A DNA stretch of 64,000 nt from Bdellovibrionales bacterium (lineage in GTDB: Bacteria > Bdellovibrionota > Bdellovibrionia > Bdellovibrionales > JAGQZY01): the NCBI GenBank assembly GCA_965218815.1, contig CBDCLX010000002.1:217074-281073 (forward strand). Direction: 5' to 3'. Both the position numbers and the translations under genes were made by a program. Shown here one piece after another: positions 5,560 to 61,238 of this stretch. The first letter of the stretch is position 1. Each line of letters begins with the position of its first letter. The notes beneath the pieces were generated by a model. That model had not been told where the DNA came from, did no database searches, and saw nothing but the letters and a program-made list of their open reading frames with translations.

Positions 5560-6402
5560 TAATCACTGGTCAGGTTTCTTGAAAAACGGGAATTTTTAAT
5601 GGGTATTGGAACTTCAAAAGATGAGGCTGAAACCAGTATACGGAAAGTGAATTATGTCATTGTCTTCACTTTTTTCAGTTTTTTCCTCTTTTTAACGGTA
5701 TTCAGTTTTTATTTTGTGCGTGAGGTGATCCGGCCCATTGAATCTCTCATAAAGGCATCAAAGGAGTTGAAGGAAAAAAGAAAGGCCTCCTTCATCCCCA
5801 ATCACAGTCAAACGGAAATTGCTGAACTGATTGCTTTTAATGAAATGAGTGGCCAGATCATTGAGTCTGATAAGAAAATGCAAAAACAACTGGAACTTCT
5901 GGAACAGGCCAACAGAAAAATCAAAAACACCCAGGGCCAGCTGGTTCAGTCGGCCAAACTGGCCGGTTTGGGAGAGTTGGTGGCGGGGATCGCCCATGAA
6001 CTCAACAATCCCATTGGTTTTATTTACTCAAATATCAGTCATCTGAGAAATTATATGGAATCTCTTTTTGCGATTGTTGATAAAAGTCATGAATCAAAAA
6101 CAGATATACAGACTTTTATGGAGAAAAATGATTATCCCTACATTAAGGAGGATCTTCCAAAGTTAAAGGCTTTTGAGGAAGGGTCCAAAAGGGCAAAGGA
6201 TATTGTGCTGGGACTTGGAAGTTTTTCCCGCTCAGACAAAGATCAGACAAGTGACTTTGATGTGAACAGTGGACTTGAAAGTACTTTGGGATTGCTCAAG
6301 GGAGTTTTTAAAAACAAAATCACGATCCACAAAAACTATACTGAAGTTCCAAAAATCAGATGCAATATCAATCACCTCAGGTTCCTCTCATGGAAGCAAT
6401 GA
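5560..6402 (+). pseudogene. Sensor histidine kinase fragment (TM-HAMP-HisKA, truncated in HATPase)
   Basis: TM helix, HAMP-like RPIESL..., H-box GELVAGIAHELNNPIGF. Homology breaks at CNINHL (about 6375), before the N/G boxes. The N-terminus is frameshifted or missing. Confidence 0.8.
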
Positions 6403-6571: not shown

Positions 6572-9500
6572 TTGTCTCAATCTGATAAAACCATTATAAG
6601 TCCTATAGCCATTGACCTTGGTGCCAAAAACACAGGCGTTTACTTTGCCCATTATAAAGCTGGCAGTCCTCTGAAAGAGATAGAAAAAGAGGGCAAAGTC
6701 TATCAGCTTGAAAAAAACAAATACACCTTATTAATGGTAAACAGAACGGCAAAACGCCATCAGAGACGTGGCTTTGACCGCAGACAGATGGCCAAGCGGC
6801 TTTTCAAACTGATCTGGGAAAAGCACTTTGGATTTAAGTGGGATAAGGACGTACAGCAAACCATTAGTTTTCTAATGAACCGCCGGGGTTTTACTTTCCT
6901 GACGGAGCAATATGATACTGAAATACTGAGTCGGTTCCCAAAAGAAGTCCATGATCTTTTACCAGACGAAATAAAGAAAAAAGTTCAAGAATACGAAGAA
7001 AACGATGCCTATAATTTTGATAGTGCCCTGAAAGATTGGGCCAAAAAAGACGAAGTAAAATCCATACTTAAGGCACTCAAGATAAGAGAAAACAGTGAGG
7101 AAACGGAACTGAAAAAATTAATTTTGGATTTTAAGACAGAAAGTTTTAAACTCGAAAATAAAAATTTCAAAACTCCAGAGCAACCTGAAGAAAATGCTCA
7201 AAATGAAGAAAAAAAGGATTATAAAAAAGATGTTTTTAAATGGAAACAACTTCACCTTCAACATCTTGTCTTTGCAATTTATAAAACCCATGACGAACTT
7301 GAATCAGGTGGTCGTCATCGTAGTAAATATTTTAAGGAAGTTGAGGATGTGTTAAACTGTGATAATCATAATCATGGCTATTTAAGGAGATTTTGTAAAA
7401 AACTTGACTCACAAAACTTCAACTTTAAGGGTTCTATCATTGAAGTGAAAACATTATCTCACTTAATCAGCCATATTAGCAATCTTGAACTGAAACCTTT
7501 ACGAAAATATTTTAATGATGAAAAACACAAAAAAGATGATTACTGGCATGAAAATCGCTTAAGGAAGATATTTGAACGCTGGATATTACATCAGTGGCGG
7601 GTGGATCCAGAAAAAAATAAAGACAAAGCCGAAGATAAAGATGGAGATTATAGAAAACTTTGTGAAGATTGGAAGAGCCACGAAGGTGAACTTGTAGATT
7701 TTTGGCTGAAAACAAATCCACTTTTTACTATTCCTCCCTACCAGAATAATAACAACCGACGACCTCCCAAGTGCCAGAGTCTCATCCTGAATGTTAAATT
7801 TTTAAACAGAATTTATCCTAAATGGCGGGATTGGTTGGAGGAGTTAAAAAAACTGGACTCAATCAAATTCTACCTTGGATTGATTGAAAATCAGGAATTA
7901 TTACAAAAGGAAGAAGAACAAAAAACCAATACAACAAAAAAGGATCAATACTACAAGTATGAAAAAGAACTCAAAGAACCTAAAAGTGGTAAAGGTAAGT
8001 CTTACTTTAATGATGAGGAAGATAGTTCTCTAAAAAGCAAAAACAAACGACGAACCAACTTTAGTCAGAGAGATCAAACAGATCTTGAAACCCGTACTCT
8101 TCAGTTTATTTTTGATCGAGTCAAGGACAATGACCTACTTAAACTCAATGAGATATACAGCCATGCAAAAAAAATCAAACAATTAAAGAGAGACTGGAAA
8201 GTTTCTCAACAATTTGCACAAATTTATGATGAGGATACAAGAAAAGCAAAAGAAGAACTGGATAAAGTCAGAACAACACTTGAAGAAACTCTTGAAGAAA
8301 GTAAATTGTCAGAGAATTTAAAAATAGGATATAATTTTAACAATGATGGTCTTTTTCCCGACGGCTCATTTCTCCATTTGATCTGCAAATATTATAAATT
8401 AAGAAAAAGAGCCAAAGAGGGTCGACTGTTTATTCATCCAGAGTACAGATACAAAGGTAAGAGTCGTGGTTACGAAAATACAGGACGTTTTGATGATAAA
8501 AACCATTTGCTCACTTATTGCAATCACAAACCAAGACAAAAGCGTTATCAAATGTTTTGGGATTTAGCGGGTTTGTTTCAGGTTTCATCTAAAACACTAA
8601 AAGAATTTATTGAAGAAAAAGATGGAAATACAACAGATGAGAAATTATTTAACTGGTTGAAAGACTTCAATGGTTTAAAAAGCAATTGTGAAAAAGCAGC
8701 AAAAGAACAAAAAGACCGTCGAGGCAGTTTAAAATCAGATATTCAAAGTGTTTTTAATTTGATTTCTTATAAAAAGAAAAGGTCATCCCATGACAAAGAA
8801 CTTAAAGACTCAGAAATCAAAATAATTTTAGAAAATTCAAAAGTGAAAGAGGCTTTTAAACTTTATAAGTTCTGCAACAAAGCTAAAAGATTAGCCCTAC
8901 AGATTACAGAAAATTTATATGATAGTTGTTCAAGACAGAAAAAGTGGAAGGAGAGTTTAGATAAAAACCCAGCCACTGCTGTGTTCTTCCTTGCTCAGAT
9001 CAATAATCTTGTTTTTAAAGAACGTAATGGCAATGCTAAGACTTGTCCTGTGTGCAGTGCTGATAATGCCCACCGTATGCAACAAGATGAGAAAGAAACC
9101 AGCACAAAAGCCCAACGTCTTTCTGCTATCAGTACACGTATTATTGACGGAGCGGTTATGAAAATGGCAAGGATTGTGAGTGGAGCTATTGCCAATGATA
9201 AATGGGAAAAAATTAAAGGGGAACTGGGAAAAGGTAACAAGGTTTGTATTCCCATTATCACGGAATCCAACCGTTTTGAATTTGAACCAAATTTGAAAGA
9301 TCTGAAAGGAAAAAAGAGCAATAGAAATGATAAGACATCAGAAAATATTTTTTCTGAGAAAAAAGACCGCATCAGACAGGCTGGCAATGGCATTTCTCCT
9401 TATTCAGGAGATCCAGTGGGAGATCAAGGAGACCTGGATCACATTATCCCCAGATCCCACAGAATATGGGGAACACTTAATGATGAGGCAAACCTTATTT

Positions 9501-11650
9501 TTACTAGTCAAAGAGATAACCGTACAGAAAAAGGAAACAACGAATATTCTTTGGAAAACTTGAATGCAAAATATAAAAGAGAACAATTTGAAACTGATGA
9601 TAAGGAAAAAATTCAGGAATGGATTATTGACCAAATTGGTGATGGCACAGATGAGGATTTTAAATTTGGAAAATACAGAAGTTTTATCAATTTAACACAA
9701 GATCAGAAAAAGGCCTTCCGTCATGCTCTTTTTTTGGATGGTCATTCTTTACGTAAAAAAGTCATCAAGGCCATTAACAATCGAACCAGGGCACTGGTTA
9801 ATGGAACCCAACGCTATTTTGCTGAAGCATTGGCAAATACTCTCTACAAAAAAGCCAAATTTATAAAAAAGGAAACCTTATTATCTTTTGATTATTTTGG
9901 TGTTGAAGCACAAGACAATTCACGGGGTGATGGAATCTATAATTTGCGTAAGGAACTTGTGGAATATTATAAACCTGATTTAAAAAGATACAATAAAACA
10001 TCAGAAGAATCTCAGGACTTATATTCACATCTCATAGACGCACAAGTAGCTTTTTGTATGGTTGCAGATGCTCACCGAAAAGAAGGAAGTTTAAAGCTCT
10101 GCCTGACTGATGATGAGGGACTTTGGTCTTGTGTTGACAGGGAGACAGGGGAGATTGTTCCCGAAAAAAATAAAATTTATGATGAAAGATTGTTTAATTT
10201 TATCCAAATAGACAGAAATTCCTTTAAAAAAGAATCTCTAATTCGTAAAAAGCCAAAGCCTAAAAAGAAGAATATTTCCTATCGCCCCTTATTTAATGAG
10301 AATGCTGTTGCCATGCACTTTTTAAAATTAATTCAAATTGATTTTAAAAAACAAAAACAATTCCTCTATCTACAGGGATTTCTTTCCTTGAATGATTTGA
10401 AAGAATGTCTTGAAGATATAGATGATGAGAATATGAATCAATCTCTAAAAGAATATGAAAAATACGCAAAAAGGATTCCAGATAACATCCTGGAAAACAC
10501 AAGAAACCTTTATCTTGATAGATTTAAGACTGTCAAAGAACAAAAAACAGGGATAACTGTGATTGAGGGTTTTGGCAGACAAAAGGCTGACATAAGAATT
10601 TACAGTTTGAATAAAACAACAGTCTATAATTTTTTGATAGAAAAATTTAATTCAAAAAAATCTTTTTTGCCAGATGAAGAAGATTTATCAATTTTAAAAA
10701 TTTTAGAAAAATCCTGGTATTTTACCAAGAAAGAAAACGTACTGAAAAAAAATAAGACAAAAGAAGAAGAGTTTAATAAACAAAACGTAAATAAATTTAA
10801 ATATGCAGGTTTTATCAATCCACAATTGGAATATGAATGGAAAAATCTTGAAAACAGTATCAATGAAAATAATACAGGTAAGACAATATATGAAAAAGTT
10901 GAGAATCATTTTTTGCATAAGAAAGAAAAAGATACAGGAGAATTCGTAAAAAAACATGATCACGAGCATCAAAAAGTAAGAAAAGTCTTTTCCCTGCCCA
11001 TAAGGAGTCAAAAAGGGTTCTTAATTAAAAAGAAAAACTGGAAAAATGAAGATGTTTTTTATTGTCGCCCTGCCAGTAATGATTTTTCACAGACAGTCTT
11101 ACACAAGAATCCATCTGGAAACATACCAGATACAAATAAAGATGAAAGACTGTCTAATATATACAGAAAAAGTAATATTTTTTATATTGCAGATATAACG
11201 AAATTAGAAAAGCAGTTAGAGTCTATAGATTCTGATCTGGCAATTGATCCAAACAAATATTACAATGCTGAAATTTCAGAAAAATTTAAAGATTATATGA
11301 ATAAAATTAAAAACAAAAGAACTGAAGAATCCAGATCCCAATTTAGATTTTATTTAACTTCAAAAAATAAAATGGATTTTGAAACATTTAAGGAATTTAT
11401 CTCATCTTATCCGTTTAGAACATTACAGGATCTAAAGGCTAAATACAGGGAACAGTATATTGATTCTTTACAAAATGAAGAAGATATAGAAGAAAAGATA
11501 AATGAAATTGAACAGATGGAAAATAAACCAAAAAATCTTTTACCCACACTGAAGCAGTTTCATCAGTTCTGGAGAGGTTCGCAGAAAGAAGAAATGTTAG
11601 AATATTCAGCCAAACACAATTTTACTCTTTCTGCCTCTGATGGAAGATAA
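6572..11650 (+). CDS. cas9: Type II-B CRISPR nuclease Cas9 (FnCas9-like), 1692 aa
   Basis: RuvC-I PIAIDLGAKNTGV, Arg-rich bridge helix NRTAKRHQRRGFDRRQ, Zn-site motifs PPKCQS / YCNH / TCPVC, RuvC-II IITESN, HNH DLDHIIPRSH...DEANL...DN...KGN, RuvC-III YSHLIDA. Long blocks are collinear with Francisella novicida Cas9 as I recall it. TTG start with AAGGA SD. Confidence 0.97.
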   Translation: MSQSDKTIISPIAIDLGAKNTGVYFAHYKAGSPLKEIEKEGKVYQLEKNKYTLLMVNRTAKRHQRRGFDRRQMAKRLFKLIWEKHFGFKWDKDVQQTISFLMNRRGFTFLTEQYDTEILSRFPKEVHDLLPDEIKKKVQEYEENDAYNFDSALKDWAKKDEVKSILKALKIRENSEETELKKLILDFKTESFKLENKNFKTPEQPEENAQNEEKKDYKKDVFKWKQLHLQHLVFAIYKTHDELESGGRHRSKYFKEVEDVLNCDNHNHGYLRRFCKKLDSQNFNFKGSIIEVKTLSHLISHISNLELKPLRKYFNDEKHKKDDYWHENRLRKIFERWILHQWRVDPEKNKDKAEDKDGDYRKLCEDWKSHEGELVDFWLKTNPLFTIPPYQNNNNRRPPKCQSLILNVKFLNRIYPKWRDWLEELKKLDSIKFYLGLIENQELLQKEEEQKTNTTKKDQYYKYEKELKEPKSGKGKSYFNDEEDSSLKSKNKRRTNFSQRDQTDLETRTLQFIFDRVKDNDLLKLNEIYSHAKKIKQLKRDWKVSQQFAQIYDEDTRKAKEELDKVRTTLEETLEESKLSENLKIGYNFNNDGLFPDGSFLHLICKYYKLRKRAKEGRLFIHPEYRYKGKSRGYENTGRFDDKNHLLTYCNHKPRQKRYQMFWDLAGLFQVSSKTLKEFIEEKDGNTTDEKLFNWLKDFNGLKSNCEKAAKEQKDRRGSLKSDIQSVFNLISYKKKRSSHDKELKDSEIKIILENSKVKEAFKLYKFCNKAKRLALQITENLYDSCSRQKKWKESLDKNPATAVFFLAQINNLVFKERNGNAKTCPVCSADNAHRMQQDEKETSTKAQRLSAISTRIIDGAVMKMARIVSGAIANDKWEKIKGELGKGNKVCIPIITESNRFEFEPNLKDLKGKKSNRNDKTSENIFSEKKDRIRQAGNGISPYSGDPVGDQGDLDHIIPRSHRIWGTLNDEANLIFTSQRDNRTEKGNNEYSLENLNAKYKREQFETDDKEKIQEWIIDQIGDGTDEDFKFGKYRSFINLTQDQKKAFRHALFLDGHSLRKKVIKAINNRTRALVNGTQRYFAEALANTLYKKAKFIKKETLLSFDYFGVEAQDNSRGDGIYNLRKELVEYYKPDLKRYNKTSEESQDLYSHLIDAQVAFCMVADAHRKEGSLKLCLTDDEGLWSCVDRETGEIVPEKNKIYDERLFNFIQIDRNSFKKESLIRKKPKPKKKNISYRPLFNENAVAMHFLKLIQIDFKKQKQFLYLQGFLSLNDLKECLEDIDDENMNQSLKEYEKYAKRIPDNILENTRNLYLDRFKTVKEQKTGITVIEGFGRQKADIRIYSLNKTTVYNFLIEKFNSKKSFLPDEEDLSILKILEKSWYFTKKENVLKKNKTKEEEFNKQNVNKFKYAGFINPQLEYEWKNLENSINENNTGKTIYEKVENHFLHKKEKDTGEFVKKHDHEHQKVRKVFSLPIRSQKGFLIKKKNWKNEDVFYCRPASNDFSQTVLHKNPSGNIPDTNKDERLSNIYRKSNIFYIADITKLEKQLESIDSDLAIDPNKYYNAEISEKFKDYMNKIKNKRTEESRSQFRFYLTSKNKMDFETFKEFISSYPFRTLQDLKAKYREQYIDSLQNEEDIEEKINEIEQMENKPKNLLPTLKQFHQFWRGSQKEEMLEYSAKHNFTLSASDGR

Positions 11651-11680
11651 CTTATATGAAATAATTCAAAAGGTTTATTT

Positions 11681-11920
11681 ATGAGTCCGACAATATTTAA
11701 ATCAAATGGATACCGGTTTTTCTTTTTCTCAAGAGAGGAGACAAGAAAACATGTTCATATCTTTTCAACAGATGGTGAATCAAAATTTTGGTTGGAACCG
11801 GAGATTGAACTTGCAAAAAATTACCATCATTCAGAAAAAAAACTTAGGAAAATTAAAAAATTGATAAAGGAGCATTATGATGAACTCATCAACGCCTGGG
11901 AAAAGCATTTCGGAAATTGA
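11681..11920 (+). CDS. DUF4160-family protein (predicted toxin of a DUF4160/DUF2442 TA pair)
   Basis: MSPTIF..NGYRFFFFSREE.R.HVH...GESKFWLEPEIELAKNY...AWEKHF is the characteristic DUF4160 pattern. Confidence 0.85.
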   Translation: MSPTIFKSNGYRFFFFSREETRKHVHIFSTDGESKFWLEPEIELAKNYHHSEKKLRKIKKLIKEHYDELINAWEKHFGN

Positions 11921-12146
11921 AGTGACGAATATCTCTTCACATGGTTTATGGTTGTACGTCCATGATGAAGAGCTTTTTATGTCCTATGAGGATTTTCCAT
12001 GGTTTAAAGGAAAAACCCTTGAGGCTGTTCTGAATGTTGAGGAAGTCTCTCTGGGGCACTATTACTGGCCAAAAATTGACATTGATTTGACCAAAGAGAT
12101 CATTCAAAATCCTGACAAATTTCCACTCAGGTCAAAAGTGAAATAG
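11877..12146 (+). CDS. DUF2442-family protein (predicted antitoxin partner)
   Basis: EVTNISSHGLWL....EELFMSYEDFPWF...VLNVEEV..GHYYWP.IDIDL is the DUF2442 pattern. It overlaps the upstream gene, and its TAG overlaps the cas1 GTG by 1 nt. Confidence 0.85.
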   Translation: MMNSSTPGKSISEIEVTNISSHGLWLYVHDEELFMSYEDFPWFKGKTLEAVLNVEEVSLGHYYWPKIDIDLTKEIIQNPDKFPLRSKVK

Positions 12147-13102
12147 TGAAACATTTAACCATTAGTGAATACGGAAGTTTTTTGGGTCTTGAGGTCAATC
12201 GCCTCCTGGTGAAAAAGGGAGAGGAAAAACGTCATTACCCACTCAATAGGTTATCAACCATCAGTATTGCAAAAAAAGGAGTCAGTCTTTCCAGTGATCT
12301 CATTGAGGCCCTCAGTGCCCGTGGGATTAAGCTGTTCTTTCTTGATTTTCGTGGAGTGACTCATTCAGCCCTTTTGGGACAATCCCAACATGGAGTGGTG
12401 GCTGTAAGGTTGGCACAACAGACCTTCTGTCAATCCGGTGATCTTAATGTTGCTGTCCAAATTATCCTTGGAAAAATTAAAAACCAAAGAGCTGTCCTGA
12501 ATTCTCTTTATAAATATCACCGCCATATATCACTCTCTCGTGTGTCTGAAGAACTCCTTTCAAATACAAAAAAAATAAGAGAAGTAAAAAACATTGAGAC
12601 TCTGTTGGGTCTGGAGGGAGCCAGTGCCTCTGCTTATTTCCAGGCGTTGCGTGAGGCTCAACTTTTTTCTTCAACTTTTGTCCGCAGGGAAGGGCGTGGT
12701 AGCCAGGAAATTAACAACTCCATGCTTAACCTTGGTTATGCCGTATTAAGCAGTTATGTCCTTAATTCCATTGTCAATGCAGGATTGGAACCCTACCTTG
12801 GAATACTACATAGTAAACGTCCAGGGAAAATGGCACTTGTCCTGGATTTAATGGAAGAGTATCGAGCCTGGGTTGTTGATAGGGCTGTGATTAAACTCCG
12901 TCAGCAGAGTGAGGGGAAAAACTGTCTGGATCAGAAACTTAAAAAAACATTCATCAAAGAAATCCAAACAACCTGTTCTAAAAAATATCCTTATCGTAAA
13001 AAGAAGCTCAAACTGGAACACATTATCCAACGTCAGGTGTACCGTCTTTGTGGTCATTTTTATAATGAAAAATGTTATAAACCTTACCTGTTTAAATGGT
13101 GA
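12146..13102 (+). CDS. cas1: CRISPR-associated integrase Cas1
   Basis: LLGLEGASASAYF, NSMLNLGYAVL, GLEPYLGILH, LVLDLMEEYR Cas1 motifs. Confidence 0.95.
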   Translation: MKHLTISEYGSFLGLEVNRLLVKKGEEKRHYPLNRLSTISIAKKGVSLSSDLIEALSARGIKLFFLDFRGVTHSALLGQSQHGVVAVRLAQQTFCQSGDLNVAVQIILGKIKNQRAVLNSLYKYHRHISLSRVSEELLSNTKKIREVKNIETLLGLEGASASAYFQALREAQLFSSTFVRREGRGSQEINNSMLNLGYAVLSSYVLNSIVNAGLEPYLGILHSKRPGKMALVLDLMEEYRAWVVDRAVIKLRQQSEGKNCLDQKLKKTFIKEIQTTCSKKYPYRKKKLKLEHIIQRQVYRLCGHFYNEKCYKPYLFKW

Positions 13103-13402
13103 ATGATGAATAAATTAAGGCAGGAATATTTAATTAGCTATGATATTGAAGACAATAAAATACGCACCCAATTGTATAAAGAACTTGTAGGATATGGGTT
13201 GCGTTCTGTTCAAAAGTCAGTGTTTTGGGGATATTTAAGTATTGCTGAATTACATTCTATCCAAAGAGATTTTCAAAGGCACCTTGATTCTCCTGACAAG
13301 GCTTTTATTACCCGTAGCAACTTCAATGGCAGAGGGCAGAGTTACTTTATTGGTCATTGTGAAAAAGATTTTAAGGATTGGGAGGAAAGTGATGTCATCT
13401 AG
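13103..13402 (+). CDS. cas2: CRISPR-associated Cas2
   Basis: YLISYDIED....LYKELVGYGLRSVQKSVFWG, 99 aa, directly after cas1. Confidence 0.95.
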   Translation: MMNKLRQEYLISYDIEDNKIRTQLYKELVGYGLRSVQKSVFWGYLSIAELHSIQRDFQRHLDSPDKAFITRSNFNGRGQSYFIGHCEKDFKDWEESDVI

Positions 13403-13970
13403 CATTCCCGTTAATCTTATTCGTCAATGGTCTTATTGCCCAAGAGTTGTTTACTATCAGGAGATGACAGAATTATCCAGGGTTGTCCACCCCTCTTGGG
13501 TAAAACAGGGTGAAATTTTTCATGAGGAAGAGAGTTTGCTTTGGCAAAGACGCAACTTATCCCGATTCAATCTAAAAGAGGGAAAAAAATACCATAACCT
13601 CTCCATACAAAGTCCCAATCTGGGACTCCATGGCATTGCCGATATGGTTATCGAAACAGATGATACTGTTTATGCTGTTGAGTTTAAATTATCCACCAAT
13701 AATAAAAAAAGAGGTGATGTATTACAACTGGTGGCATACGCCATGCTGATACAGCAATATTTTGAAAAACCAAGTCCCATGGGCTTTTTGATTGGAAAAA
13801 ATAAAATATTGCATCAAATTGTTATCGACCAGGAAAAATGCGAACAAGTCAAAATAATAGTCAGGGAAATTCGGATCATGATGGAAAAAGGTCAAAAGCC
13901 AGAGTCCAGTGCTTTTCTCACCCAATGCAGTGCTTGTGAGTATGTCAACTTTTGCAATGACAGACTTTGA
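13392..13970 (+). CDS. cas4: CRISPR-associated exonuclease Cas4
   Basis: Cys pattern QWSYCPR ... QCSACEYVNFC with the GIADMV / AVEFK / QLVAYA RecB-like motifs. The start is placed at ATG 13392 (GGAGG at 13381) rather than the track start of 13242. Confidence 0.93.
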   Translation: MSSSIPVNLIRQWSYCPRVVYYQEMTELSRVVHPSWVKQGEIFHEEESLLWQRRNLSRFNLKEGKKYHNLSIQSPNLGLHGIADMVIETDDTVYAVEFKLSTNNKKRGDVLQLVAYAMLIQQYFEKPSPMGFLIGKNKILHQIVIDQEKCEQVKIIVREIRIMMEKGQKPESSAFLTQCSACEYVNFCNDRL

Positions 13971-13982
13971 ATTTTGTTCTGG

Positions 13983-14018
13983 GTACAAAAAAACCGCATA
14001 AATGCGGTCTTTTTGTAC
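13983..14018. terminator. Bidirectional intrinsic terminator (cas4 on +, tracrRNA on -)
   Basis: gtacaaaaaaaccgcat-aa-atgcggtctttttgtac: a GC stem with A and T tracts on both sides. Confidence 0.8.
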
Positions 14019-14110
14019 TCTCTAAAAGAGAGTCAGACGTGATAATCAGAGGTCCGTTCATAATACTTTTTGATGATTACAGGTCATCAATAATGGGTTA
14101 TACTGAACTA
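13988..14110 (-). ncRNA. tracrRNA
   Basis: The minus-strand 5' part ucaguauaacccauuau (14090-14106) is a perfect 17-nt complement of the crRNA repeat. The following cuguaaucaucaaaaaguauuaugaacggaccucugauuaucacgucug closely resembles the F. novicida tracrRNA scaffold as I recall it. It ends in the terminator hairpin. Confidence 0.9.
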
Positions 14111-14112
14111 TG

Positions 14113-14141
14113 ATTTTACAATATGAACTGTATTTTGTCCA
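14113..14141 (-). promoter_or_regulatory. Sigma70-like promoter of tracrRNA
   Basis: Minus strand TGGACA-N17-TAAAAT, ending a few nt upstream of the anti-repeat. Confidence 0.65.
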
Positions 14142-14254
14142 TATTTTTCAACTTTTTTCGCAAAAAATGCCATGTTTTTAACAATCAGCAAACTTGCGAA
14201 AAAATATTTTCAAAGCCTCCTGCAATTACCTGATTTAACAGGATAATTGCAGGA

Positions 14255-14941
14255 CTTCCATCAGTATAACCCATTATCCAGACACTGAAACTCGGTTTTA
14301 TTTCGCAGACTTGCCGAGATTGAAGAACTTCCATCAGTATAACCCATTATCCAGACACTGAAACATGGCTAAACTTAGTTGTATGTTAATAAAACGTACC
14401 TTCCATCAGTATAACCCATTATCCAGACACTGAAACTTGTTTTGGGGAAAAACTGCTTATGCACGGAAATTACTTCCATCAGTATAACCCATTATCCAGA
14501 CACTGAAACAACAAAAGACAGATTTCCATTATTTCAAACTTATACTTCCATCAGTATAACCCATTATCCAGACACTGAAACTATGTTAATTGTCAAACAC
14601 TCAGAAAACCCTCCCACTTCCATCAGTATAACCCATTATCCAGACACTGAAACCATATTTCTGTGTCAGCTAAAGTTTTAGCCAATCTTCCATCAGTATA
14701 ACCCATTATCCAGACACTGAAACAGCAAAAGACAGATTTCCATGGTTTCAAACTTATAAACTTCCATCAGTATAACCCATTATCCAGACACTGAAACTTT
14801 AGCACATTTGCTTGAAAAAAAAGATTATTTCACTTCCATCAGTATAACCCATTATCCAGACACTGAAACAGCTCCATTTGTTCGCTTGTAGACAATCCTT
14901 CCACCTTCCATCAGTATAACCCATTATCCAGACACTGAAAC
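14255..14941 (-). CRISPR. Type II-B CRISPR array: 10 identical 37-nt repeats, 9 spacers of 33-37 nt
   Basis: Repeat GTTTCAGTGTCTGGATAATGGGTTATACTGATGGAAG (minus strand) starts on + at 14255, 14328, 14400, 14473, 14545, 14617, 14687, 14761, 14833 and 14905. The GTTTCAG start resembles the Francisella II-B repeat. Orientation is inferred from tracrRNA pairing. Confidence 0.98.
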
Positions 14942-15462
14942 TACCTGGTGCTGTTCGAAAAAACAATGTGCCTTTTCTTCCATCTCATCGTTAGGGGACA
15001 GAGGGTTTTCCCTTATTTTTTCAAGACTCTTTGTTTTGAAGGATATTTCCACGGAATCCCGGTCTGTTGCATCAGGATTAACAATATTAAAACTGATCTT
15101 CCTAAGAGGACCCTGATCATTTGCATCTCTAACATAAATGACTGTAGTCTCGTTGTCAGGGGAATTTGTAATTCTCATTTTAACCTTGTTCTCACTCTCA
15201 AATTTACGTTTTTGACCGAGTGGCGGATTAGGCGTAAAAAAAGAAATTAAACAATCAAAATACTTTACAGATCTAGTATTCTCTGCCGCTATTGATCGTG
15301 TTTCCTGGTTATAATATCTGACCTTTGGACTTTTGGATCCTTGGGTGAACTGCTGAAATGTAAGGTTATTTTTAGATGGCATTGAAGAGCAGGCTCCAAG
15401 GATCGAAACCAGAATTAAAGAGACAAATGAAAAGCCACTGTTTTTACAAATCCAGTGGTCAT
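14924..15462 (-). CDS. Putative lipoprotein whose 3' end reads into the CRISPR array (probable 1-nt frameshift near 15418)
   Basis: Lipobox ILGAC. ATG at 15462 gives MTTGFVKTVAFHLSL, which joins ILVSILGAC with one indel. The stop TAA lies inside repeat 10. Confidence 0.55.
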
Positions 15463-15470
15463 AATAAGGT

Positions 15471-15827
15471 AAAATCTTTTCATAATCGCTCCTCTGGACT
15501 CTCAGAAAACAGGGCAAGTCAGTGAGACTTGCCCGGGTTCAAGGTGATACTCCTACTGGTTGGGGATTCCCAACTCAACTCCCCTTTAAAAGGGCTGCTG
15601 CTGGATCTATCCACCAGCACCATACAGATGTGTGGTTTATTGAAACAATCCAATGACTTTTCTGACCATATTTTCAAGTGCTGCGATATCGTCCGCAGAT
15701 TCACCAAGAGATGTTACAGCAGTCATACTTTTTGTTGTAGGATCAATACTATAATTCATTTGTCCCAGGGATGCACCCTCTCCTGTAGAACTTAACTTGT
15801 CTGCACGGAGATAGGAGGAACCACTAG
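15471..15827. repeat. 357-bp direct repeat, copy A (3' end of the 18687-19643 gene)
   Basis: Same sequence as 18518-18874 apart from 3 substitutions I could see. It ends at CTAG, where IS1380 begins. Confidence 0.9.
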
Positions 15828-17147
15828 CCCGAACTTCTCATAAAGTTTGATTGAAGTCCTGTTTTTCTGAAATTTTAGTGGAATTTTCAGTCATTCCCAT
15901 TTTCCATAATGGTTGTTGAATAAAATTCTTCATTTTTTAACCAGTAGCAAGTCTTTGAAGAGATTTTTCAATGAAATTGATAAATTTTAACAACTTCCAG
16001 ACAAAACTCTGCCTGAACTCTCATGGAATCTAAAAATATTGCTTGATTTAAAGAAAATAAAAACTATCCGTAGCAAGCCTTTAAATTTATCATAATCCTG
16101 CGAAATAAATCCATAAAGGGATAGCCCGATGACATCTGAATATAAACCCTGCGAACACTCACCTTTACCAAAGCTCCTATCTTAAAAAGTTTCAACCTGA
16201 TTGTGGAACATTGAGCCTTGGCAAGGGCTGTACCCTTTAAGGCTTTCCTTCTCAACTCACTTATGAGAACATACGACACACTGGAAAGCCAAAGCCTGAG
16301 TTGATTGGATGTAAAATCATGAGTGCTCGTTCGGTCGGCAAACAAACATAACTGCTGCCCCTTGATCCTGTTCTCCATATCTCCACGGGCACAATAAAGC
16401 TCCTCATACAATGACTTGCCCTCATACTCCTGTTTGCAAAGGAAGATAACAATAGTTCCCATAATATCCATGGAAAAATCGATCCTCCTGATCCCCATGA
16501 AGAGGATCATCGGTGGCATCAAAATCAAGCCCAATCTCCTTGGGGGCTTTATCATGGGAATTTAAGAAAGTGGTTGCAAAAAACTCCTCCACCTTATCGG
16601 GATGACAAACAATCTTCTTGTATCCCTTGACTGTATGGGCTTCATGGGAACCCAACTCCAAACGATTTAATGTGCTTTTCCCTGCCAGGGCCGCTCCCCT
16701 GTCTGACTCTTTTGGACGATCCAATCCCATGGGGTCTGTCTTTCCAACCAGAGTGTGGTGCCAACAAAGGGTCTTTTCTTAAAACTTCATGATCGTTAAG
16801 GTCCTCATAACCAAGGCAAATTCCATAGACTCTCTGTGCAAGAAGATTTTTTAGAGGGTGTTCCACATATCTTTGATCCCTGTGGTCGGTGAAACAATCT
16901 GAAAAGCTTTGAAGAATTCCTCGCTTCTTATCAACTTCTGCCAAAAGCAGGGAACCGGCATCCGAGGTCACATGGCCTGCTGAAAAATCAGCAACCACCT
17001 TGCGTTGTCCCAAACCTTGAAATTCAATCTGTTTTGTAAAACACTCTGTATTCATGGGGAGTCCTTTCGTTTTTTTGTAATACCTCAATTTTATTGAGGA
17101 AATAATGAAAGTCACTCCCTTTTTCTATTTCTTGTGAGAAATTCGGG
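15828..17147 (-). mobile_element. IS1380-family insertion sequence, internally deleted (1320 bp)
   Basis: TIRs cccgaacttctcataa and (reverse complement) cccgaatttctcacaa (14/16). CTAG lies on both sides (15824-15827, 17148-17151). Confidence 0.85.
16064..17055 (-). pseudogene. IS1380 transposase, frameshifted and internally deleted
   Basis: Fragments TSDAGSLLL, GYEDLNDH, AGKSTLNRLE, LDFDATDDPLHG.QE.RFFHGYYG.YCYLP, then a jump directly to YCARGDMENRIK..NQLRL. Confidence 0.9.
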
Positions 17148-17275: not shown

Positions 17276-17330
17276 TATAATGAATGAAGTTGCACTTTTT
17301 TCAACAAAAAGTGCAACTTCATTCATTATA
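17276..17330. promoter_or_regulatory. Perfect 25-bp inverted repeat: putative AbiEi autoregulatory operator
   Basis: tataatgaatgaagttgcacttttt-tcaac-aaaaagtgcaacttcattcattata immediately upstream of abiEi. AbiE operons are known to be autorepressed through a long promoter inverted repeat. Confidence 0.75.
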
Positions 17331-17932
17331 TGGAAATGGGACAAAATGAACTTAAAAAGCAAATTGATCGGCTGCTTCCACTTGGAGTCTTCTCAACAAA
17401 AGAAGCCACCGAAAGGCTTTCCATATCGCAGCCCACACTCTCTCGTTGGATAGCTCAAAGTGACCTAATCCAGAAGGTTTCAAGGGGCTACTATGTTCAT
17501 ACCAAGGCCAGCATCAACTACGAGTATCTCGATTATATCGTGGCTTGCAAAAAGTTTGGAAAAAACGCCGTCATTGGGGGCCTTTCGGCCATAGAGTTTT
17601 ACAAACTCACCGAACAGGTTTCACCTCAAGTCTGGGTACTGGTGCCACCATTGAGGAGGGTTTCAACGGACAACAAATATAAGGTGATAAAAACAAAATC
17701 TTCTTTGAAAGTTGGAGTGACTTCAATTGAGGGATTTAGAATCGTCAGTCTGGATCGTGCCCTTATTGAAGCCCTAAAATATCAATCAAAAATCGGAGAG
17801 GGTATTGCTTTTAAAGCTGTTACTGATGCCATCAAAAGTGGGCATACATCTGAGGATCGCCTTTATAAGATGGCAAAAAAACTCAACATGATTTCATTTT
17901 TAGAAAAGAAATGGGAACTCCTAACCGCATGA
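17330..17932 (+). CDS. abiEi: AbiEi-family type IV TA antitoxin / transcriptional regulator
   Basis: N-terminal wHTH (VFSTKEA...LSRW...IQKVSRGYY), GGLSA, SLDRALIEA. It overlaps an AbiEii gene. Confidence 0.8.
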   Translation: MEMGQNELKKQIDRLLPLGVFSTKEATERLSISQPTLSRWIAQSDLIQKVSRGYYVHTKASINYEYLDYIVACKKFGKNAVIGGLSAIEFYKLTEQVSPQVWVLVPPLRRVSTDNKYKVIKTKSSLKVGVTSIEGFRIVSLDRALIEALKYQSKIGEGIAFKAVTDAIKSGHTSEDRLYKMAKKLNMISFLEKKWELLTA

Positions 17933-18517
17933 AAGGCCCAGAAGCAAAAGCTCGCTCCATTGCACAAAGACTTTCAAACATTTCAAAAGAGATAAATATT
18001 TCTTATAGATATGTGTCCACCAATTTTTTTATTGAGCGTATGGTAGCAAGGATTCTTACAACCCCCCTTAGAGACAAGCTCATTTTTAAGGGCGGCTATG
18101 TTGGACTGAGAGTTTATGATTCTAAAAGATATACAGTGGACTTGGATGCAGTACTTCAATCTATAAAAGACAAAAAACGATTAGAACTCCTTCAAAAAGC
18201 CATTGAATCTGATATTGGTGATGGAGTCTGGTTTAATCTGGAACGCCAAGAGGACTTGCCCCTACAAACAATTCGCAGCGGAATAAAGCAGGTTTATCGC
18301 GTTGGCCTTGGTGTTCTTCCTGAAAATAAGACAAAGGCCGCAGTTGTTCAGCTTGATATTGGATTTGGAGACTCGATTGCCCCTGGCTCCATTGATACAA
18401 AAATTTCATCTATTCTTGGGGAATGCGAGATCAGTTGGAAGGTTTATCCAGTTGAGGCTATCATTGCTGAAAAACTCCATGCTTTTATTTGTAGAGACGG
18501 TGGTAGCTCAAGAGGCA
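17911..18517 (+). pseudogene. abiEii: AbiEii-family nucleotidyltransferase toxin, C-terminally truncated at repeat copy B
   Basis: LIFKGG, RYTVDLD, QLDIGFGD, YPVEAIIAEKLHA. It breaks at SSRGK, where the SRxKDxxD motif should continue. Confidence 0.8.
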
Positions 18518-18874
18518 AAAATCTTTTCATAATCGCTCCTCTGGACTCTCAGAAAACAGGGCAAGTCAGTGAGACTTGCCCGGGTTCAAGGTGATACTCC
18601 TACTGGTTGGGGATTCCCAACTCAACTCCCCTTTAAAAGGGGGGCTGCTGGATCTATCCACCAGCACCATACAGATGTGTGGTTTATTAAAACAATCCAA
18701 TGACTTTTCTGACCATATTTTCAAGTGCTGCGATATCGTCCGCAGATTCACCAAGAGATGTTACAGCAGTCATACTTTTTGTTGTAGGATCAATACTATA
18801 ATTCATTTGTCCCAGGGATGCACCCTCTCCTGTAGAACTTAACTTGTCTGCACGGAGATAGGAGGAACCACTAG
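18518..18874. repeat. 357-bp direct repeat, copy B
   Basis: Matches 15471-15827. Here the sequence continues uninterrupted into the intact gene. Confidence 0.9.
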
Positions 18875-22145: not shown

Positions 22146-23280
22146 TTAAAATCCCTCTTTCATGAATTTTAAATAGGAAAAAATAAAATCATTGAGATCA
22201 CCATCCATGACCTTCTGAACCTGACTGGTTTCCAGTGAAGTCCGATGGTCTTTCACCATCTGGTGAGGGTGCATGACATAGGATCGGATCTGGGAACCCC
22301 ATTTGTTGGCTTTTTTTTGTGAATTGACTTCGTTTTTTTCCTGCCGACGTTCCTCCAGCTGTTTTTCATAGAGAGCGGCTTTGAGGAGTTTCAGGGCCTG
22401 ATCCTTATTGGCGTGCTGACTTCGCTGGTTTTGGCATTGAACCACAATGCCTGTGAGGTTGTGGGTGATCCGAACGGCTGAGTCTGTGGTGTTGATATGC
22501 TGGCCTCCGGCCCCACTGGCCCGATAGGTGTCCACTTTGATATCCTCCTGTTTGATGGTCACCTCCCTGTCATCATCCACTTCAGGCCAGGCAAACACAG
22601 AGGCAAAGCTTGTGTGGCGGCGGGCATTGGAGTCAAAAGGTGAAATCCGGACCAGACGATGAACCCCGGACTCCGCTTTCAGGTAACCATAGGCGTAGGG
22701 ACCCTGGACACTCAGAGTGATTGATTTAAGACCGGCTTCCTCTCCGGAGGTTATTTCCAGGAGATCCATTTTATAACCCGCCCTTTCGGCATAGCGTTTG
22801 TACATCCGGTACAGCATTTCCGCCCAGTCACAGGCTTCTGTTCCTCCAGCCCCTGAGTTAATGGCAAGGAAGGCATTGTTGAAGTCGGAAGGTTCATCCA
22901 GTAATTGTTTAAGTTCCAGTTCATTGATGACTTTTCTGATTTGTTCAATTTCAGCAACGGCTTCCATAAAGGACTGTTCATCAGACTCCTCCTCAGCCAT
23001 GTCCAGCAGGACTCCAAGGTCATTGACTTTGTTATTCAGATTGTTCCACTGTTCCAGGGTTTTTTGGTGAATGGCAATATCGCGGTTGATTTTTTGCATT
23101 TCCAGTGGGTTTTTCCAGACCTCCGGGTTTTCTGACCGGTGCTTTAACTCCCTGAATTCTTTGAGACGGCGATCAATGTCAAAGATACCTCCGCAGTTGG
23201 ATTGATTTTGAAACCATGTCCTGAACCTGGCTTCGATACTGACTCAAATGGGTTGTGATATTTAAATTTTTGTCTTTCAT
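22146..23280 (-). CDS. prfB: Peptide chain release factor 2 with programmed +1 frameshift
   Basis: GAGGTEACDW, RISPFD (SPF), SGAGGQHIN (GGQ). ATG at 23280, and the frameshift site AGGTAT-CTT-TGA-C at 23190-23178. Confidence 0.96.
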
Positions 23281-25529: not shown

Positions 25530-28133
25530 CTACTTCTCTTTAATTAGTTTTCCAAAATCTTCTTTCCATGTTTTTTCCATGAGGATTTTGAAGATCATTT
25601 TCTGTTCATTTTCTGAAACAACTTCCATATCACCCACATTAACAGATTCATTTGTAGCGTGCTTTTCAAAAATCTCAAAGAGTTTCTTCTTATATTCTGT
25701 ATCATCATTTCCTTTTAGCTGGTCGCCTTTTGTTTCTAAAACAGAGAGCTTGTTTATTTTATTATCAGGACTGATAAAAGCCAAGAAATCAGGATAAACT
25801 TTCCTCTTCTGCCAGCCTTGTAGATGATAATCCTGTTTTGCGACCATCCTATGCCACCATTTAACTGCTTCTTGCTCATCTAAATACCAGGCCACTTGTT
25901 TTTCCAATTCATTGTAGTGACGCTGATAAGTTATATCAAAGAGCGACATTTGAAAACCTCTATCATCTTCTCTTCTTAAAACCTTGTCATTTGTAGAAAC
26001 AATAAAATCAATTTCATGTCCCATAGTCCAATTTATATCAATACGATTTTTAAAGATTTTAAAACAAAGAGAGCCTTCTTTTAATTTGTTTGTAAAAATT
26101 TTTTCTGAAAGGGTATCTATCTGTTTCCTTATATCCTCTTCTATGGATTCCAAAAGATAGGTTCTGTTTAAGTAAATTTTTTTATCCGATATTTTCTTGA
26201 CTTTTAAGGCTGTTATTGTTTCATCAAAAATTCTTCCAGCTTCCCAGGGATGGGGAATAAAATTGCAAAGCCTCTTCATTATAAATGAGTAATCTGTCTC
26301 TACCATATCTTCTCTTTTATTTTGACTTACATACGGCAAACTGAATTGACCCGCTTTGTCTTCCATATCCATTTTTATGGAATTAACTTGCAGGGAATCT
26401 ATATTTTCAGGATTCCAACTGTCCTTTTTTGAATAAGATATTTTTGAAAAATTTATGTTCTGGAGAATATCCTGTGCATAAATAATATTTCTCCATGAAT
26501 TTTTTTTTGTTTTACACAGTACTCTGGGAAGAAAAATTTTTGTCTTTTGAAATTTTGGATTCCTTTTTGTTGTCACTTTTTTGAAATCACTTTCCTCTGT
26601 TTTTACATAGTCAGCCAAATCATCCATGCCTTCTTTTTGCAGTCCCTTTCTAATGTCTGAAACAATCTCCTCAACATCTTTGTTATAACAAAAAATATAA
26701 CTCTCATTTAAAGATTCCATTGGAGTTCTTTGGGCATGAGGCTGTCTTAAAATCCTTCCTATTAACTGAGTGAGAGCCAATTTTGATTTTGCTTTGGATA
26801 AAATAACCAGAACATAAGCAAAAGGGCAGTCCCAACCTTCCTGAAGAGCTTGCTTTGTAATTATGAACTGCACCTGTGAAGTATCACTTAAAAGGCTCTC
26901 ATCCTTTAGTTCATCTTTTTCTGAAACCTTGATTTTAACAGCTTCCTCAGAGACTCCAAGATGATTGATTAAATACTCTTTTGCATCTTCGGAATGAATA
27001 AAATTTTTATCTTTTTGATCCCTTCCTGTTCGTTCTACCTGAACAAGCATAATTGGACGGATATATTTCCTGTTCTTTTCGTGGTATGTTTTACAGTCTT
27101 CTTCCAATTCTTTTATTTTATCATAGGCTTGGCACAAAGTTTTTTTCCAATCTCCTCTTTTTGAATTGGTAACATTTATAGGAAGTTTTATCATTTCCTC
27201 TTCTTTTAATCTCACTCCTGAAATACTAACAAGAACATTACTTAAGTGTTCTTTCATATTGGGAGTGGCTGATAGTTCAATGATAAATTTTGGATTAAGA
27301 CCGGACAGGGTGTTTCTCGCTAATTCAGAATAAGCTTTGTGCCCTTCATCCAACACCACAATAGGACGGGCAATCCTTATGGCATTTCCCAAACTGTGTT
27401 TGACGGAAACACCTTTTACACCTCCCAAAGATTTATTATTTCTATAAATATCCAGGTTGCTAATTTGAGAAAGAAGCCCCTCATTAGCCTGATAATTTTC
27501 AGGCTGTGGGAAAAAAGAAATAAATCTTCCTGAGTCTTTAAACATTCTCAAAGATTCGTTTGTCTCCCTATTTGCTGAAGGCAACATCAAAAGCATAACA
27601 CAAAGATATTCCTGTAAATCCTGCAAAGAAAAGGAATCTGTTTTTTCAATGATTTTAACTTTTCCGGCCCCGGCTCTTTCCAAAACTCTTCTGTAAAAAT
27701 GGGATCGATCTTTAAAATTTTTAAGGGTTTGGCTGTATATAGCTTTTGTGGGGACAATCCACAAGATTAAACCTGTGTTTTTTTTAAAGTAATCAAAGTT
27801 TATTTTTTCAACAGATGAAACGCCTATCAGAGTTTTACCTCCCCCTGTAGGCACTTTTAAGCATATATTTGGAATAGGATCTTCCAATTTATTCTTCTTA
27901 TTTTGATAGGGAAGACTTTGAAACTGTCCTTTTTTGTTTTTAAATTTAGGAAGTTTTTCGTTAGCCTGAAGGCTTTCCCATGTTTTTTGACAGTATTCCT
28001 CTATTTTTCTATCTCGCCATTTGCTTTTATGAAATTCTACTTCATCTTTTTCTTCTATATACTTTTCCTTTAAAAGCTTCAGATAGTAATCCAACTTTTC
28101 CAAACACAACTCTTGAAATTCTTTTAATTCCAT
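25530..28133 (-). CDS. res: Type III restriction enzyme Res subunit
   Basis: KVPTGGGKT, LDEGHK, ELSATP, LQEGWDCP, QLIGRILRQP, and C-terminal YPDF...LETKG nuclease motif. The true start is ATG 28133, overlapping the in-frame-corrected mod stop. Confidence 0.92.
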   Translation of the reverse strand: MELKEFQELCLEKLDYYLKLLKEKYIEEKDEVEFHKSKWRDRKIEEYCQKTWESLQANEKLPKFKNKKGQFQSLPYQNKKNKLEDPIPNICLKVPTGGGKTLIGVSSVEKINFDYFKKNTGLILWIVPTKAIYSQTLKNFKDRSHFYRRVLERAGAGKVKIIEKTDSFSLQDLQEYLCVMLLMLPSANRETNESLRMFKDSGRFISFFPQPENYQANEGLLSQISNLDIYRNNKSLGGVKGVSVKHSLGNAIRIARPIVVLDEGHKAYSELARNTLSGLNPKFIIELSATPNMKEHLSNVLVSISGVRLKEEEMIKLPINVTNSKRGDWKKTLCQAYDKIKELEEDCKTYHEKNRKYIRPIMLVQVERTGRDQKDKNFIHSEDAKEYLINHLGVSEEAVKIKVSEKDELKDESLLSDTSQVQFIITKQALQEGWDCPFAYVLVILSKAKSKLALTQLIGRILRQPHAQRTPMESLNESYIFCYNKDVEEIVSDIRKGLQKEGMDDLADYVKTEESDFKKVTTKRNPKFQKTKIFLPRVLCKTKKNSWRNIIYAQDILQNINFSKISYSKKDSWNPENIDSLQVNSIKMDMEDKAGQFSLPYVSQNKREDMVETDYSFIMKRLCNFIPHPWEAGRIFDETITALKVKKISDKKIYLNRTYLLESIEEDIRKQIDTLSEKIFTNKLKEGSLCFKIFKNRIDINWTMGHEIDFIVSTNDKVLRREDDRGFQMSLFDITYQRHYNELEKQVAWYLDEQEAVKWWHRMVAKQDYHLQGWQKRKVYPDFLAFISPDNKINKLSVLETKGDQLKGNDDTEYKKKLFEIFEKHATNESVNVGDMEVVSENEQKMIFKILMEKTWKEDFGKLIKEK

Positions 28134-40448: not shown

Positions 40449-40649
40449 TTTTTATACTGATCCGGTTTGAATTTTCATGGAATTTCTCTATGAAAGTCAC
40501 ATGAAAAACAAATGGTCTTCAGTATAATAATCTCTCTAATGAAAAGGCTTGTAACACATTATGCCGATCGTGTCAAGTGCGTACAATTTCAGGACCGACT
40601 GGAAAATTCTAAATCATTATAATCATTAAACTTCATTTTTCAGGGCCTG

Positions 40650-40955
40650 CTAATTACAACAATTCTTGTGAACAATAATTTCAGATATTTTTTCATTTCT
40701 GTCAATTAAGAAAACAATTTGCCAGGCATCTTGTCCTTGTTTCCGGGCGATCTCAATCATATATGTAGGAAACATCTCACTAAAATAGTGTCCGTCAGAG
40801 GGACCAAATAATTCCCTTATTTCATTTGCATGTTTTCCAATAAACTGTTTTTTCTTCTTAAGAAGGGAACAGGCCATCTCTGCCCTTATTGAGTCATTAG
40901 GTGCCTTCTTGAATTTTTCAATACTTAATGGAGCCCCCCGAAACTTTTTCCACAA
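40650..40955 (-). CDS. Hypothetical protein (5' part frameshifted, likely start near 41163); duplicated at 58655-58960
   Basis: 101-aa ORF. The upstream frame begins MSFILLILQGVF. Confidence 0.5.
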   Translation of the reverse strand: MWKKFRGAPLSIEKFKKAPNDSIRAEMACSLLKKKKQFIGKHANEIRELFGPSDGHYFSEMFPTYMIEIARKQGQDAWQIVFLIDRNEKISEIIVHKNCCN

Positions 40956-41144
40956 AATCCCCTGAAAAATCCATAAAGTAGCATTTTAGATCATGGTCCC
41001 CCAAAGCCCTGACAACTTCAAGAGTTCCCGCTATATTACATTCACCCCTTTCCATGGAGGTCACAGTGATATTGGTCAGATTTTTAACTCTATCGTCTAT
41101 GGCTGCTTCCAACTTTCCGTAATCCAGATCAGAATACCCCTTGG

Positions 41145-60878: not shown

Positions 60879-61238
60879 TTGGAGATCAAATTGTCTCAGT
60901 GGCACTTTTTTACATTCATGGTTTTAGAAAAAAAACCAAAAGACTCCGAACACCCTCAAGGAGATCGTGTATTGGACTGTTTTAGTTTTTCCACTCAGGG
61001 CATGAAAATTAAAGGGCAACCACGGTTTAATAAATTTAATGTAACTTTGTCTATCCCTCAAGATGGCTCATTAGTATCCACGCAGGTTCAAGTGATAAAT
61101 AAGCAAAAAGATTTTTTTGAAGTCCGTTTTATTAACCCATCTTCAAAACTATTAACAAAACTTTCTTGGTGGGATACGAGAACTACTCACGAGCGACCTA
61201 AATATTTTCCCGACCGAAATTTGGATATCGGCGTTTGA
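60879..61238 (+). CDS. Hypothetical protein, possibly PilZ-like beta-barrel
   Basis: DCFSFSTQGM resembles the PilZ D/NxSxxG motif, and the sequence has a beta-rich pattern. Confidence 0.4.
   Translation: MEIKLSQWHFFTFMVLEKKPKDSEHPQGDRVLDCFSFSTQGMKIKGQPRFNKFNVTLSIPQDGSLVSTQVQVINKQKDFFEVRFINPSSKLLTKLSWWDTRTTHERPKYFPDRNLDIGV

Follow-up and report, generated by a model that had tools for sequence, protein, structure and literature searches.

Does the CRISPR-Cas9 locus carried by the 64,000-nt window analysed here (the whole stretch taken from contig CBDCLX010000002.1 of assembly GCA_965218815.1) amount to an intact type II-B immune system, and would its Cas9 select targets in the same way as the characterized enzymes of this subtype? 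The answer to the first part is very probably yes: the window holds what we consider to be an intact, canonical-looking type II-B CRISPR-Cas9 locus for adaptive immunity, which a Bdellovibrionales-like chromosome acquired by horizontal transfer. The original prediction, made from the letters of the DNA, had called the locus complete, and cas9, cas1, cas2, cas4, the trans-activating CRISPR RNA (tracrRNA) gene and the repeat array were all found intact, within exactly the coordinates predicted (6572-14941). Gene content, integrity of the motifs, the RNA genes and their strand, the conservation of tracrRNA and leader, and the position of the leader are read directly from the sequences. The protein-coding parts of the system are as follows.

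6572-11650, plus strand: cas9 (Csx12-type, II-B), with a TTG start and 1692 amino acids (aa), matched by TIGR03031 and PF21069
10094-11650, plus strand: WED/PI part of cas9, residues 1175-1692, holding R1588 (EESRSQF) and R1616 (YPFR), from AlphaFold2 and Foldseek
12146-13102, plus strand: cas1, matched by TIGR00287 (215 bits) and PF01867
13103-13402, plus strand: cas2, matched by PF09827 and TIGR01573
13392-13970, plus strand: cas4, 192 aa long if begun at the ATG at 13392, within an open reading frame (ORF) spanning 13242-13970, matched by TIGR00372 (88 bits) and PF01930

The cas9 reading frame runs uninterrupted through its 1692 codons. Its product scores 622 bits against TIGR03031 (cas_csx12), the NCBIfam equivalog for II-B Cas9/Csx12 whose cutoff is 399, and matches Pfam PF21069 with an E-value of 6e-114, which bears out the II-B assignment made earlier. 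Searching the PDB with the protein retrieved every chain of FnCas9, the Francisella novicida enzyme (E about 1e-266), and PsCas9 of Parasutterella secunda (E about 1e-51, 179 bits). We then aligned 27 II-B Cas9 sequences whose identity to the window protein is 45-58%. The RuvC I, II and III residues (D15, E898, H1153 and D1156), the HNH residues (D956, H957 and N983) and four cysteines (C401, C650, C825 and C828) are invariant in this alignment, and the RuvC, HNH and cysteine motifs first noted as intact are indeed so. Pairwise alignment gives D11, H969, N995 and C460/C657/C814/C817 as FnCas9 counterparts; in FnCas9 the four cysteines are reported to bind zinc (Hirano et al. 2016). By homology with FnCas9 and PsCas9, the window Cas9 would cleave DNA in an RNA-guided manner that depends on a protospacer adjacent motif (PAM).

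The protein is nevertheless divergent, as had been proposed: in a search of 5.8 billion proteins, the closest relative showed 55% identity to it. No near-identical characterized ortholog was found among them, and the nearest solved structure is FnCas9. The F. novicida U112 II-B system (FnCas9; PDB 5B2O, 9EHF) shares with the window locus the gene order cas9-cas1-cas2-cas4, repeats of 37 nt and the placement of the tracrRNA, which separates cas4 from the array. At the protein level, homology with FnCas9 is strong from the N-terminus to RuvC-III, the catalytic and cysteine residues are the same, and the WED/PI fold is kept. PsCas9 (PDB 8UMF, 9KO9) and the Legionella Lpn/LpCas9 enzymes are likewise detected by TIGR03031 (PMC10482872), and the fold of the PsCas9 C-terminal region matches that of the window Cas9, but these proteins are far less closely related (179 bits), and they are shorter by about 230-260 aa; the PAM of PsCas9 is NGG. 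The window protein is a new II-B member of a known family and is not close to any characterized enzyme.

Would such an enzyme read the same PAM? It had been suggested that the protein follows FnCas9 up to RuvC-III and diverges strongly thereafter, and this holds quantitatively: the 332-aa stretch covering RuvC-II, HNH and RuvC-III scores 311 bits against FnCas9, whereas the last 619 aa score 97 bits, mostly from RuvC-III. A structure prediction of the PI domain, advised at the outset, was run on residues 1175-1692. The AlphaFold2 model, built on a 61-sequence alignment, has a mean pLDDT (predicted local distance difference test) of 87.9. In Foldseek it matches FnCas9 with an E-value of 1e-16, an identity of 17-18% and a template modelling (TM) score of 0.45-0.47 on query length, and PsCas9 with an E-value of 1e-12; beyond these two, the Foldseek search returned no match below E 0.1. 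According to this model, the WED/PI fold is retained and its sequence has diverged.

In FnCas9, R1585 reads the second G of NGG and R1556 the third (10.1101/2023.01.08.523136). In the family alignment, R1588 of the window protein (in TEESRSQFRF) falls on the Fn-type DNNTRPKVR motif as the counterpart of R1556, which backs the earlier alignment of EESRSQF with the SR motif of FnCas9. The other position may differ. Pairwise alignment sets FnCas9 R1585 against S1612, with the Fn KSRYP segment lying over SSYPF. An arginine (R1616, in YPFR) is found four residues past S1612 and is conserved within the subclade of the window protein in the family alignment; it could stand in for R1585. The window WED/PI, 17-18% identical and with a serine aligned to R1585, is set apart from that of FnCas9, which reads NGG (10.1101/2023.01.08.523136). 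A PAM other than NGG is a possibility. Because no protospacer was found, the PAM cannot be called from sequence. This type of WED/PI is scarce. Among 1.84 billion representative proteins we obtained 18 matches at E <= 1e-3, of which seven reached E <= 1e-30, and among the related loci that we fetched (numbered with an L hereafter) it occurs only in L001, L035, L049 and L050, at 44-53% identity. These four loci come from metagenome-assembled genomes (MAGs) and are uncharacterized (L001 is labelled Chlorobiota and L035 Bdellovibrionales). They also share the tracrRNA core and the leader layout of the window locus, while their overall Cas9 identity to it is at most 55%.

The RNA components and their control elements occupy the interval downstream of cas4.

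13987-14106, minus strand: tracrRNA, about 120 nt, with anti-repeat, CUGUAAUCAUC..GAACGGACCUCUG..CACGUCUG core, variable stem-loop and terminator
13993-14008, both strands: bidirectional terminator hairpin common to cas4 (plus strand) and tracrRNA (minus strand)
14113-14141, minus strand: promoter-like site for tracrRNA, TGGACA-17-TAAAAT, with 10 of 12 consensus matches
14108-14254: CRISPR leader, 147 bp, with a hairpin at 14219-14253, box1 at 14194-14200 and box2 at 14158-14163
14255-14941, minus strand: CRISPR array of ten 37-nt repeats and nine spacers, crRNA-sense repeat GTTTCAGTGTCTGGATAATGGGTTATACTGATGGAAG
14942-14984, minus strand: possible tenth spacer (14942-14976) followed by a vestigial repeat stub, CTTCCATC, at 14977

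In type II-B systems, a tracrRNA with its anti-repeat lies between cas4 and the array, whose repeats are 37 nt long (Chylinski 2013, PMC3737331), and the window locus has this same layout. The tracrRNA, read from 14106 down to 13987, opens with the anti-repeat, which is followed by a linker and stem (CUGUAAUCAUCAAAAAGUAUUAUGAACGGACCUCUG...CACGUCUG) and then by a second hairpin; it closes with the terminator hairpin and its U run, the latter corresponding to a run of T from 13992 to 13987 after the shared stem on the minus strand. The anti-repeat (14091-14107) matches the central part of the repeat in reverse complement. The promoter-like site ends 7 nt before the anti-repeat, and a start about 7 nt downstream would coincide with the anti-repeat. 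The predicted repeat:anti-repeat duplex consists of 18 contiguous pairs and an interrupted lower stem (-34 kcal/mol). More than 30 related loci show the same layout between cas4 and the array. In the 23 loci that we aligned the core does not vary, and both the stem 1 extension (four pair types) and the terminator show covariation. Recurrence, invariance and covariation together argue for a real tracrRNA transcribed from the minus strand, in keeping with the tracrRNA already proposed for this locus. Its core, CUGUAAUCAU..GAACGGACCUCUG..CACGUCUG, is nearly the same as that of the published FnCas9 single guide RNA. Rfam detected no family at gathering threshold anywhere in the window, and none of its curated models recognizes this tracrRNA. 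The RNA genes lie on the strand opposite to the cas genes, a point missing from the original prediction. A variant arrangement was seen in L021, from a Myxococcales MAG, where the stretch from cas4 to the array holds two tandem tracrRNA cores, about 130 nt from each other.

A minus-strand tracrRNA implies that the CRISPR RNAs (crRNAs) should be minus-strand transcripts too. The array is regular, with ten identical 37-nt repeats, whose initial 31 nt or so read GUUUCAGUGUCUGGAUAAUGGGUUAUACUGA, and nine spacers of 33-37 nt, and its orientation relative to cas9 is the same in all 35 related arrays. Beyond its last complete repeat, the stub at 14977 matches the repeat over 8 nt in exact register and shows no match further on, recalling the truncated terminal repeats of L007 and L036. 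Degenerate repeats are cas-distal in all seven related loci where they are clearly degenerate; one other related locus has a single mismatch in its cas-proximal repeat. Taken with the in-register stub, the cas-distal position of degenerate repeats places the leader between the tracrRNA and repeat 1, so that the 147 bp separating them are the cas-proximal leader. Since the crRNAs are predicted to be minus-strand transcripts, they would be read towards this leader, not away from it.

The geometry of the leader is fixed. A hairpin (14219-14253, -22 kcal/mol) abuts repeat 1, and its sequence varies among loci. Two short boxes, TTCGCAA (box1) and TTGCGA (box2), lie further off, both on the minus strand. 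About 29 of 37 loci have a TTCG[C/A]AA box at 54-59 nt and an inverted TTGCGA at 90-96 nt from the first repeat. From our reading of the sequences, box2 stands in several relatives at the distance of a -35 element from a -10-like hexamer upstream of the anti-repeat. The leader position, the direction of the crRNAs and the conserved boxes had all escaped the original prediction.

Transcription of the array is less clearly accounted for. A generic promoter scan found no promoter inside the repeats and, outside the distal end, only a weak site with 9 of 12 matches. In the type II-C arrays of Neisseria meningitidis and Campylobacter jejuni, a promoter lies within each repeat (PMC5965381). The window array resembles them in that its crRNAs would be read towards the cas genes and in that its repeats contain a -10-like hexamer; in most of the 35 arrays a TATACT or TATATT sequence occupies repeat positions 24-29 of 37, 8 nt from the 3' end. 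By analogy, promoters may lie inside the repeats, as in type II-C. In contrast to II-C, the route documented for II-B is co-processing by RNase III (PMC5965381).

What the spacers target was addressed by several searches. Blastn of the array against phage and plasmid records gave nothing significant (two chance matches of 23-35 nt, E 0.6). IMG/VR was scanned with exact patterns taken from parts of six of the nine spacers, and the JGI metagenomes with one such pattern and with the repeat, in each case with no match. Allowing up to 8 mismatches, the spacers matched neither the window nor any of 48 fetched loci. Phage records gave no match to the arrays of the two nearest relatives either. The array itself may hold a trace of past acquisition. 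Spacers 4 and 7 (14510-14544 and 14724-14760) are near-identical, differing at three places. The end beside the GTTTCAG handle is common to both, and their opposite ends differ by 2 nt in length. The two are variants of one protospacer, and such a pattern would be expected if they were acquired in a PAM-anchored manner from two related invaders. At the distal end, the array is entered by an ORF of lipoprotein type (14924-15517, minus strand, lipobox LGAC), with its last codons within the possible tenth spacer and the last repeat.

The three adaptation genes, whose presence had been reported, are all intact. The start of cas4 was chosen by reference to homologues of 191 aa. Compared with their counterparts in the closer related loci, the products of cas1, cas2 and cas4 show 58-75% identity, and 39-57% when compared with the most distant; for Cas1 alone, identity is 64-75% to most related loci and 47-58% to the most distant. 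The operon lacks csn2.

With these parts, the locus could operate as follows, on the basis of homology with FnCas9 and PsCas9. The array would be transcribed from the minus strand, towards the cas genes. The tracrRNA of about 120 nt would pair with each repeat through the 18 contiguous base pairs and the interrupted lower stem, and the duplex would then be processed. The spacer would guide Cas9 to DNA beside a PAM read by the divergent WED/PI, and the HNH and RuvC sites would cut it. New spacers would be inserted by Cas1, Cas2 and Cas4 at the cas-proximal end, beside the structured leader.

Several observations weigh against reading the locus as a functional immune system. The array is short, and its nine spacers found no match in phage or plasmid records or in the window, nor did the patterns from six of them in IMG/VR or the single pattern used on the JGI metagenomes. 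The start codon of cas9 is TTG. Sequence scans point to no convincing external promoter for the pre-crRNA. R1585 of FnCas9 is not conserved in the pairwise alignment, which leaves no prediction of target recognition. Finally, expression, RNA processing, cleavage, the PAM and the driver of pre-crRNA transcription are inferred only.

Some of these observations would also suit a locus that is intact in sequence and is either immunologically dormant or devoted mainly to endogenous gene regulation, in the style of F. novicida, where a complex of scaRNA (small CRISPR/Cas-associated RNA), tracrRNA and Cas9 represses a lipoprotein operon. Such a role would agree with a small array for which no protospacer was found and with the lipoprotein-like ORF that adjoins it. 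The REC3 clamp of II-B enzymes, which permits repression without cleavage, has moreover been described as family-wide, the clamp residues of FnCas9 being K788, K789, S792, Y794 and Q798 (PMC12231574). The corresponding segment is kept in the window Cas9, where it aligns as N-P-..A-.F...Q, but several contact residues are changed, K788, K789, S792 and Y794 of FnCas9 being replaced by N, P, A and F. Also in contrast to F. novicida, the window locus has no scaRNA-like element: apart from the tracrRNA anti-repeat, no degenerate repeat of this kind occurs in the window. Nor does any spacer match the window, even at up to 8 mismatches, and both the nuclease residues and the entire adaptation module are intact. 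We consider regulation or dormancy unlikely.

The immune locus that we favour appears to have been acquired by its host. A Bdellovibrionota-like host had been proposed, and two marker genes agree with it: the closest organism-named relative of MurJ (57%) is from a Bdellovibrionales-labelled MAG, in a clade well apart from the rest (<= 42%), and the top named relatives of GcvP (60%) are from MAGs with the same label. A Bdellovibrionales-like host is supported by these comparisons, which rest on MAG labels. Bdellovibrionales MAGs also account for nine of the 46 II-B loci in species-representative genomes. The locus had been described as more AT-rich than the flanking core genes, and indeed the GC content of cas9 is 32.8% (28.9% in its C-terminal third), as against 44-48% in prfB, murJ, gcvP, epmA and lolC. 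Upstream, a histidine-kinase ORF (5599-6402, plus strand) ends inside the region of the ATPase N-box, with a partial HisKA and no HATPase domain detected; the CRISPR locus, which lies 170 bp downstream, probably truncated this gene when it inserted. A plasmid origin of cas9 was set aside, no tblastn match being found in PLSDB.

Low GC content, the truncated kinase gene, a degraded insertion sequence (IS) and neighbouring defence and mobile genes fit acquisition into a defence-rich region rather than misassembly. An origin of the locus in a different genome, with misassembly or a binning error having placed it between its present flanks, as a GC content 10-15 points below that of core genes and the scatter of the closest Cas9, Cas1 and DUF-pair relatives (see below) across many phyla might suggest, is highly improbable: Cas9, GcvP and MurJ are each recorded on a contig of one and the same length, 3,043,838 bp (3.04 Mb), the window holds further low-GC islands of defence and mobile genes, the truncated kinase gene and degraded IS at the borders fit an insertion, and several Bdellovibrionales MAGs also have II-B loci.

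The acquired II-B operon contains two additional genes between cas9 and cas1, its sole extra ORFs, which the original prediction had missed and which are a further difference from the F. novicida locus.

11681-11920, plus strand: DUF4160 gene encoding a DhiT-like putative toxin, 79 aa (PF13711, E 8e-17)
11877-12146, plus strand: DUF2442 gene encoding a DhiA-like putative antitoxin, 89 aa (PF10387, E 3.5e-12)

The two genes overlap by 44 nt, and the stop codon of the DUF2442 gene overlaps the GTG start of cas1. DhiTA of Dickeya dadantii is a validated type II toxin-antitoxin system made of DUF4160 and DUF2442 proteins, with the toxin gene first (PMC8198452). The window pair resembles it in having both domains, the toxin-first order and overlapping genes. 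Many such pairs are found on plasmids, with the same layout as the window pair and at most 53% identity. The window pair differs from DhiTA in being inside a cas operon and coupled to cas1, and in that its DUF4160 protein scores weakly against the NCBIfam model toxin_DhiT (NF048015), at 19.7 bits, far below the cutoff of 100. From sequence, the DUF4160 protein would be a putative toxin and the DUF2442 protein its putative antitoxin.

By tblastn, both genes were found at the same position between cas9 and cas1 in seven other II-B loci (L001, L005, L011, L013, L016, L025 and L039). Two more loci, L012 and L004, have only DUF2442, giving DUF2442 matches in nine loci. MAG labels of these loci are Chlorobiota, Oxydemutatoraceae, Poriferihabitaceae, Arenicellales, Nitrospira and Thermodesulfobacteriota. 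Identities are 54-77% for DUF4160 across the seven other loci and 51-77% for the pair as a whole. The pair, translationally coupled to cas1, is thus present in at least eight II-B loci from at least five phyla, with an identity above that of Cas9 itself. Among the loci sharing the WED/PI type of the window, L001 also has the pair; L049 and L050, the two nearest Cas9 relatives, lack it, so that the pair is distributed patchily. No PADLOC model covers a DUF4160/DUF2442 pair, and our literature search found no paper tying it to CRISPR. A speculative view, to which we give little weight as a whole, is that the pair is a working II-B accessory, either an addiction module guarding the cas operon or a modulator of adaptation, and that the YPFR-type WED/PI reads a PAM other than NGG.

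How unusual is the locus within its subtype? II-B enzymes had been called rare, which is correct only in relative terms. We found at least 360 II-B-related protein clusters, so that II-B Cas9s are not truly rare in metagenomes, and the window locus is one more among several hundred uncharacterized II-B loci. The leader geometry, the polarity of the array and the toxin-antitoxin-like pair are the less expected part of our results and concern the whole subfamily rather than the window locus alone; they could guide the study of spacer acquisition by II-B systems and of their retention in genomes. High specificity and staggered cuts are what make II-B Cas9s such as FnCas9 and PsCas9 valuable, and both of these, the ones studied in depth, use NGG. 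If the window Cas9 does have a PAM unlike NGG, this would broaden the targeting range of high-fidelity II-B editors. The locus provides a complete, testable list of parts (protein, crRNA handle and tracrRNA) of a II-B enzyme whose PAM-reading domain is unusual. It is a reasonable candidate for PAM profiling.

Other features of the window surround the CRISPR locus. At 16064-17115 (minus strand) and 17330-18594 (plus strand) there are a DDE transposase gene (PF13701) divided between two ORFs, suggestive of a degraded IS, and, just past the array, a pair of HTH and AbiEii genes of the AbiE toxin-antitoxin type. The prfB ORF (22146-23099, minus strand) matches the RF2 model only from position 44, as would be expected from the familiar programmed +1 frameshift early in this gene. 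A low-GC island (25530-29784, minus strand) encodes a type III restriction-modification system with Res (881 aa) and Mod (494 aa) subunits. A PglX-like or type IIG-like DNA methyltransferase of 879 aa is encoded at the edge of the window (61198-63837, minus strand). Finally, an exact direct repeat of 1,509 bp is present at 40536-42044 and 58541-60049, 18 kb apart. Its two copies bracket genes for a relaxase, an ISL3 transposase, CBASS-like proteins (a cyclase fragment and TRIP13), a WYL protein and a Dsr1-like sirtuin, and the arrangement may represent either a composite mobile element or an IS-like unit that has been duplicated.

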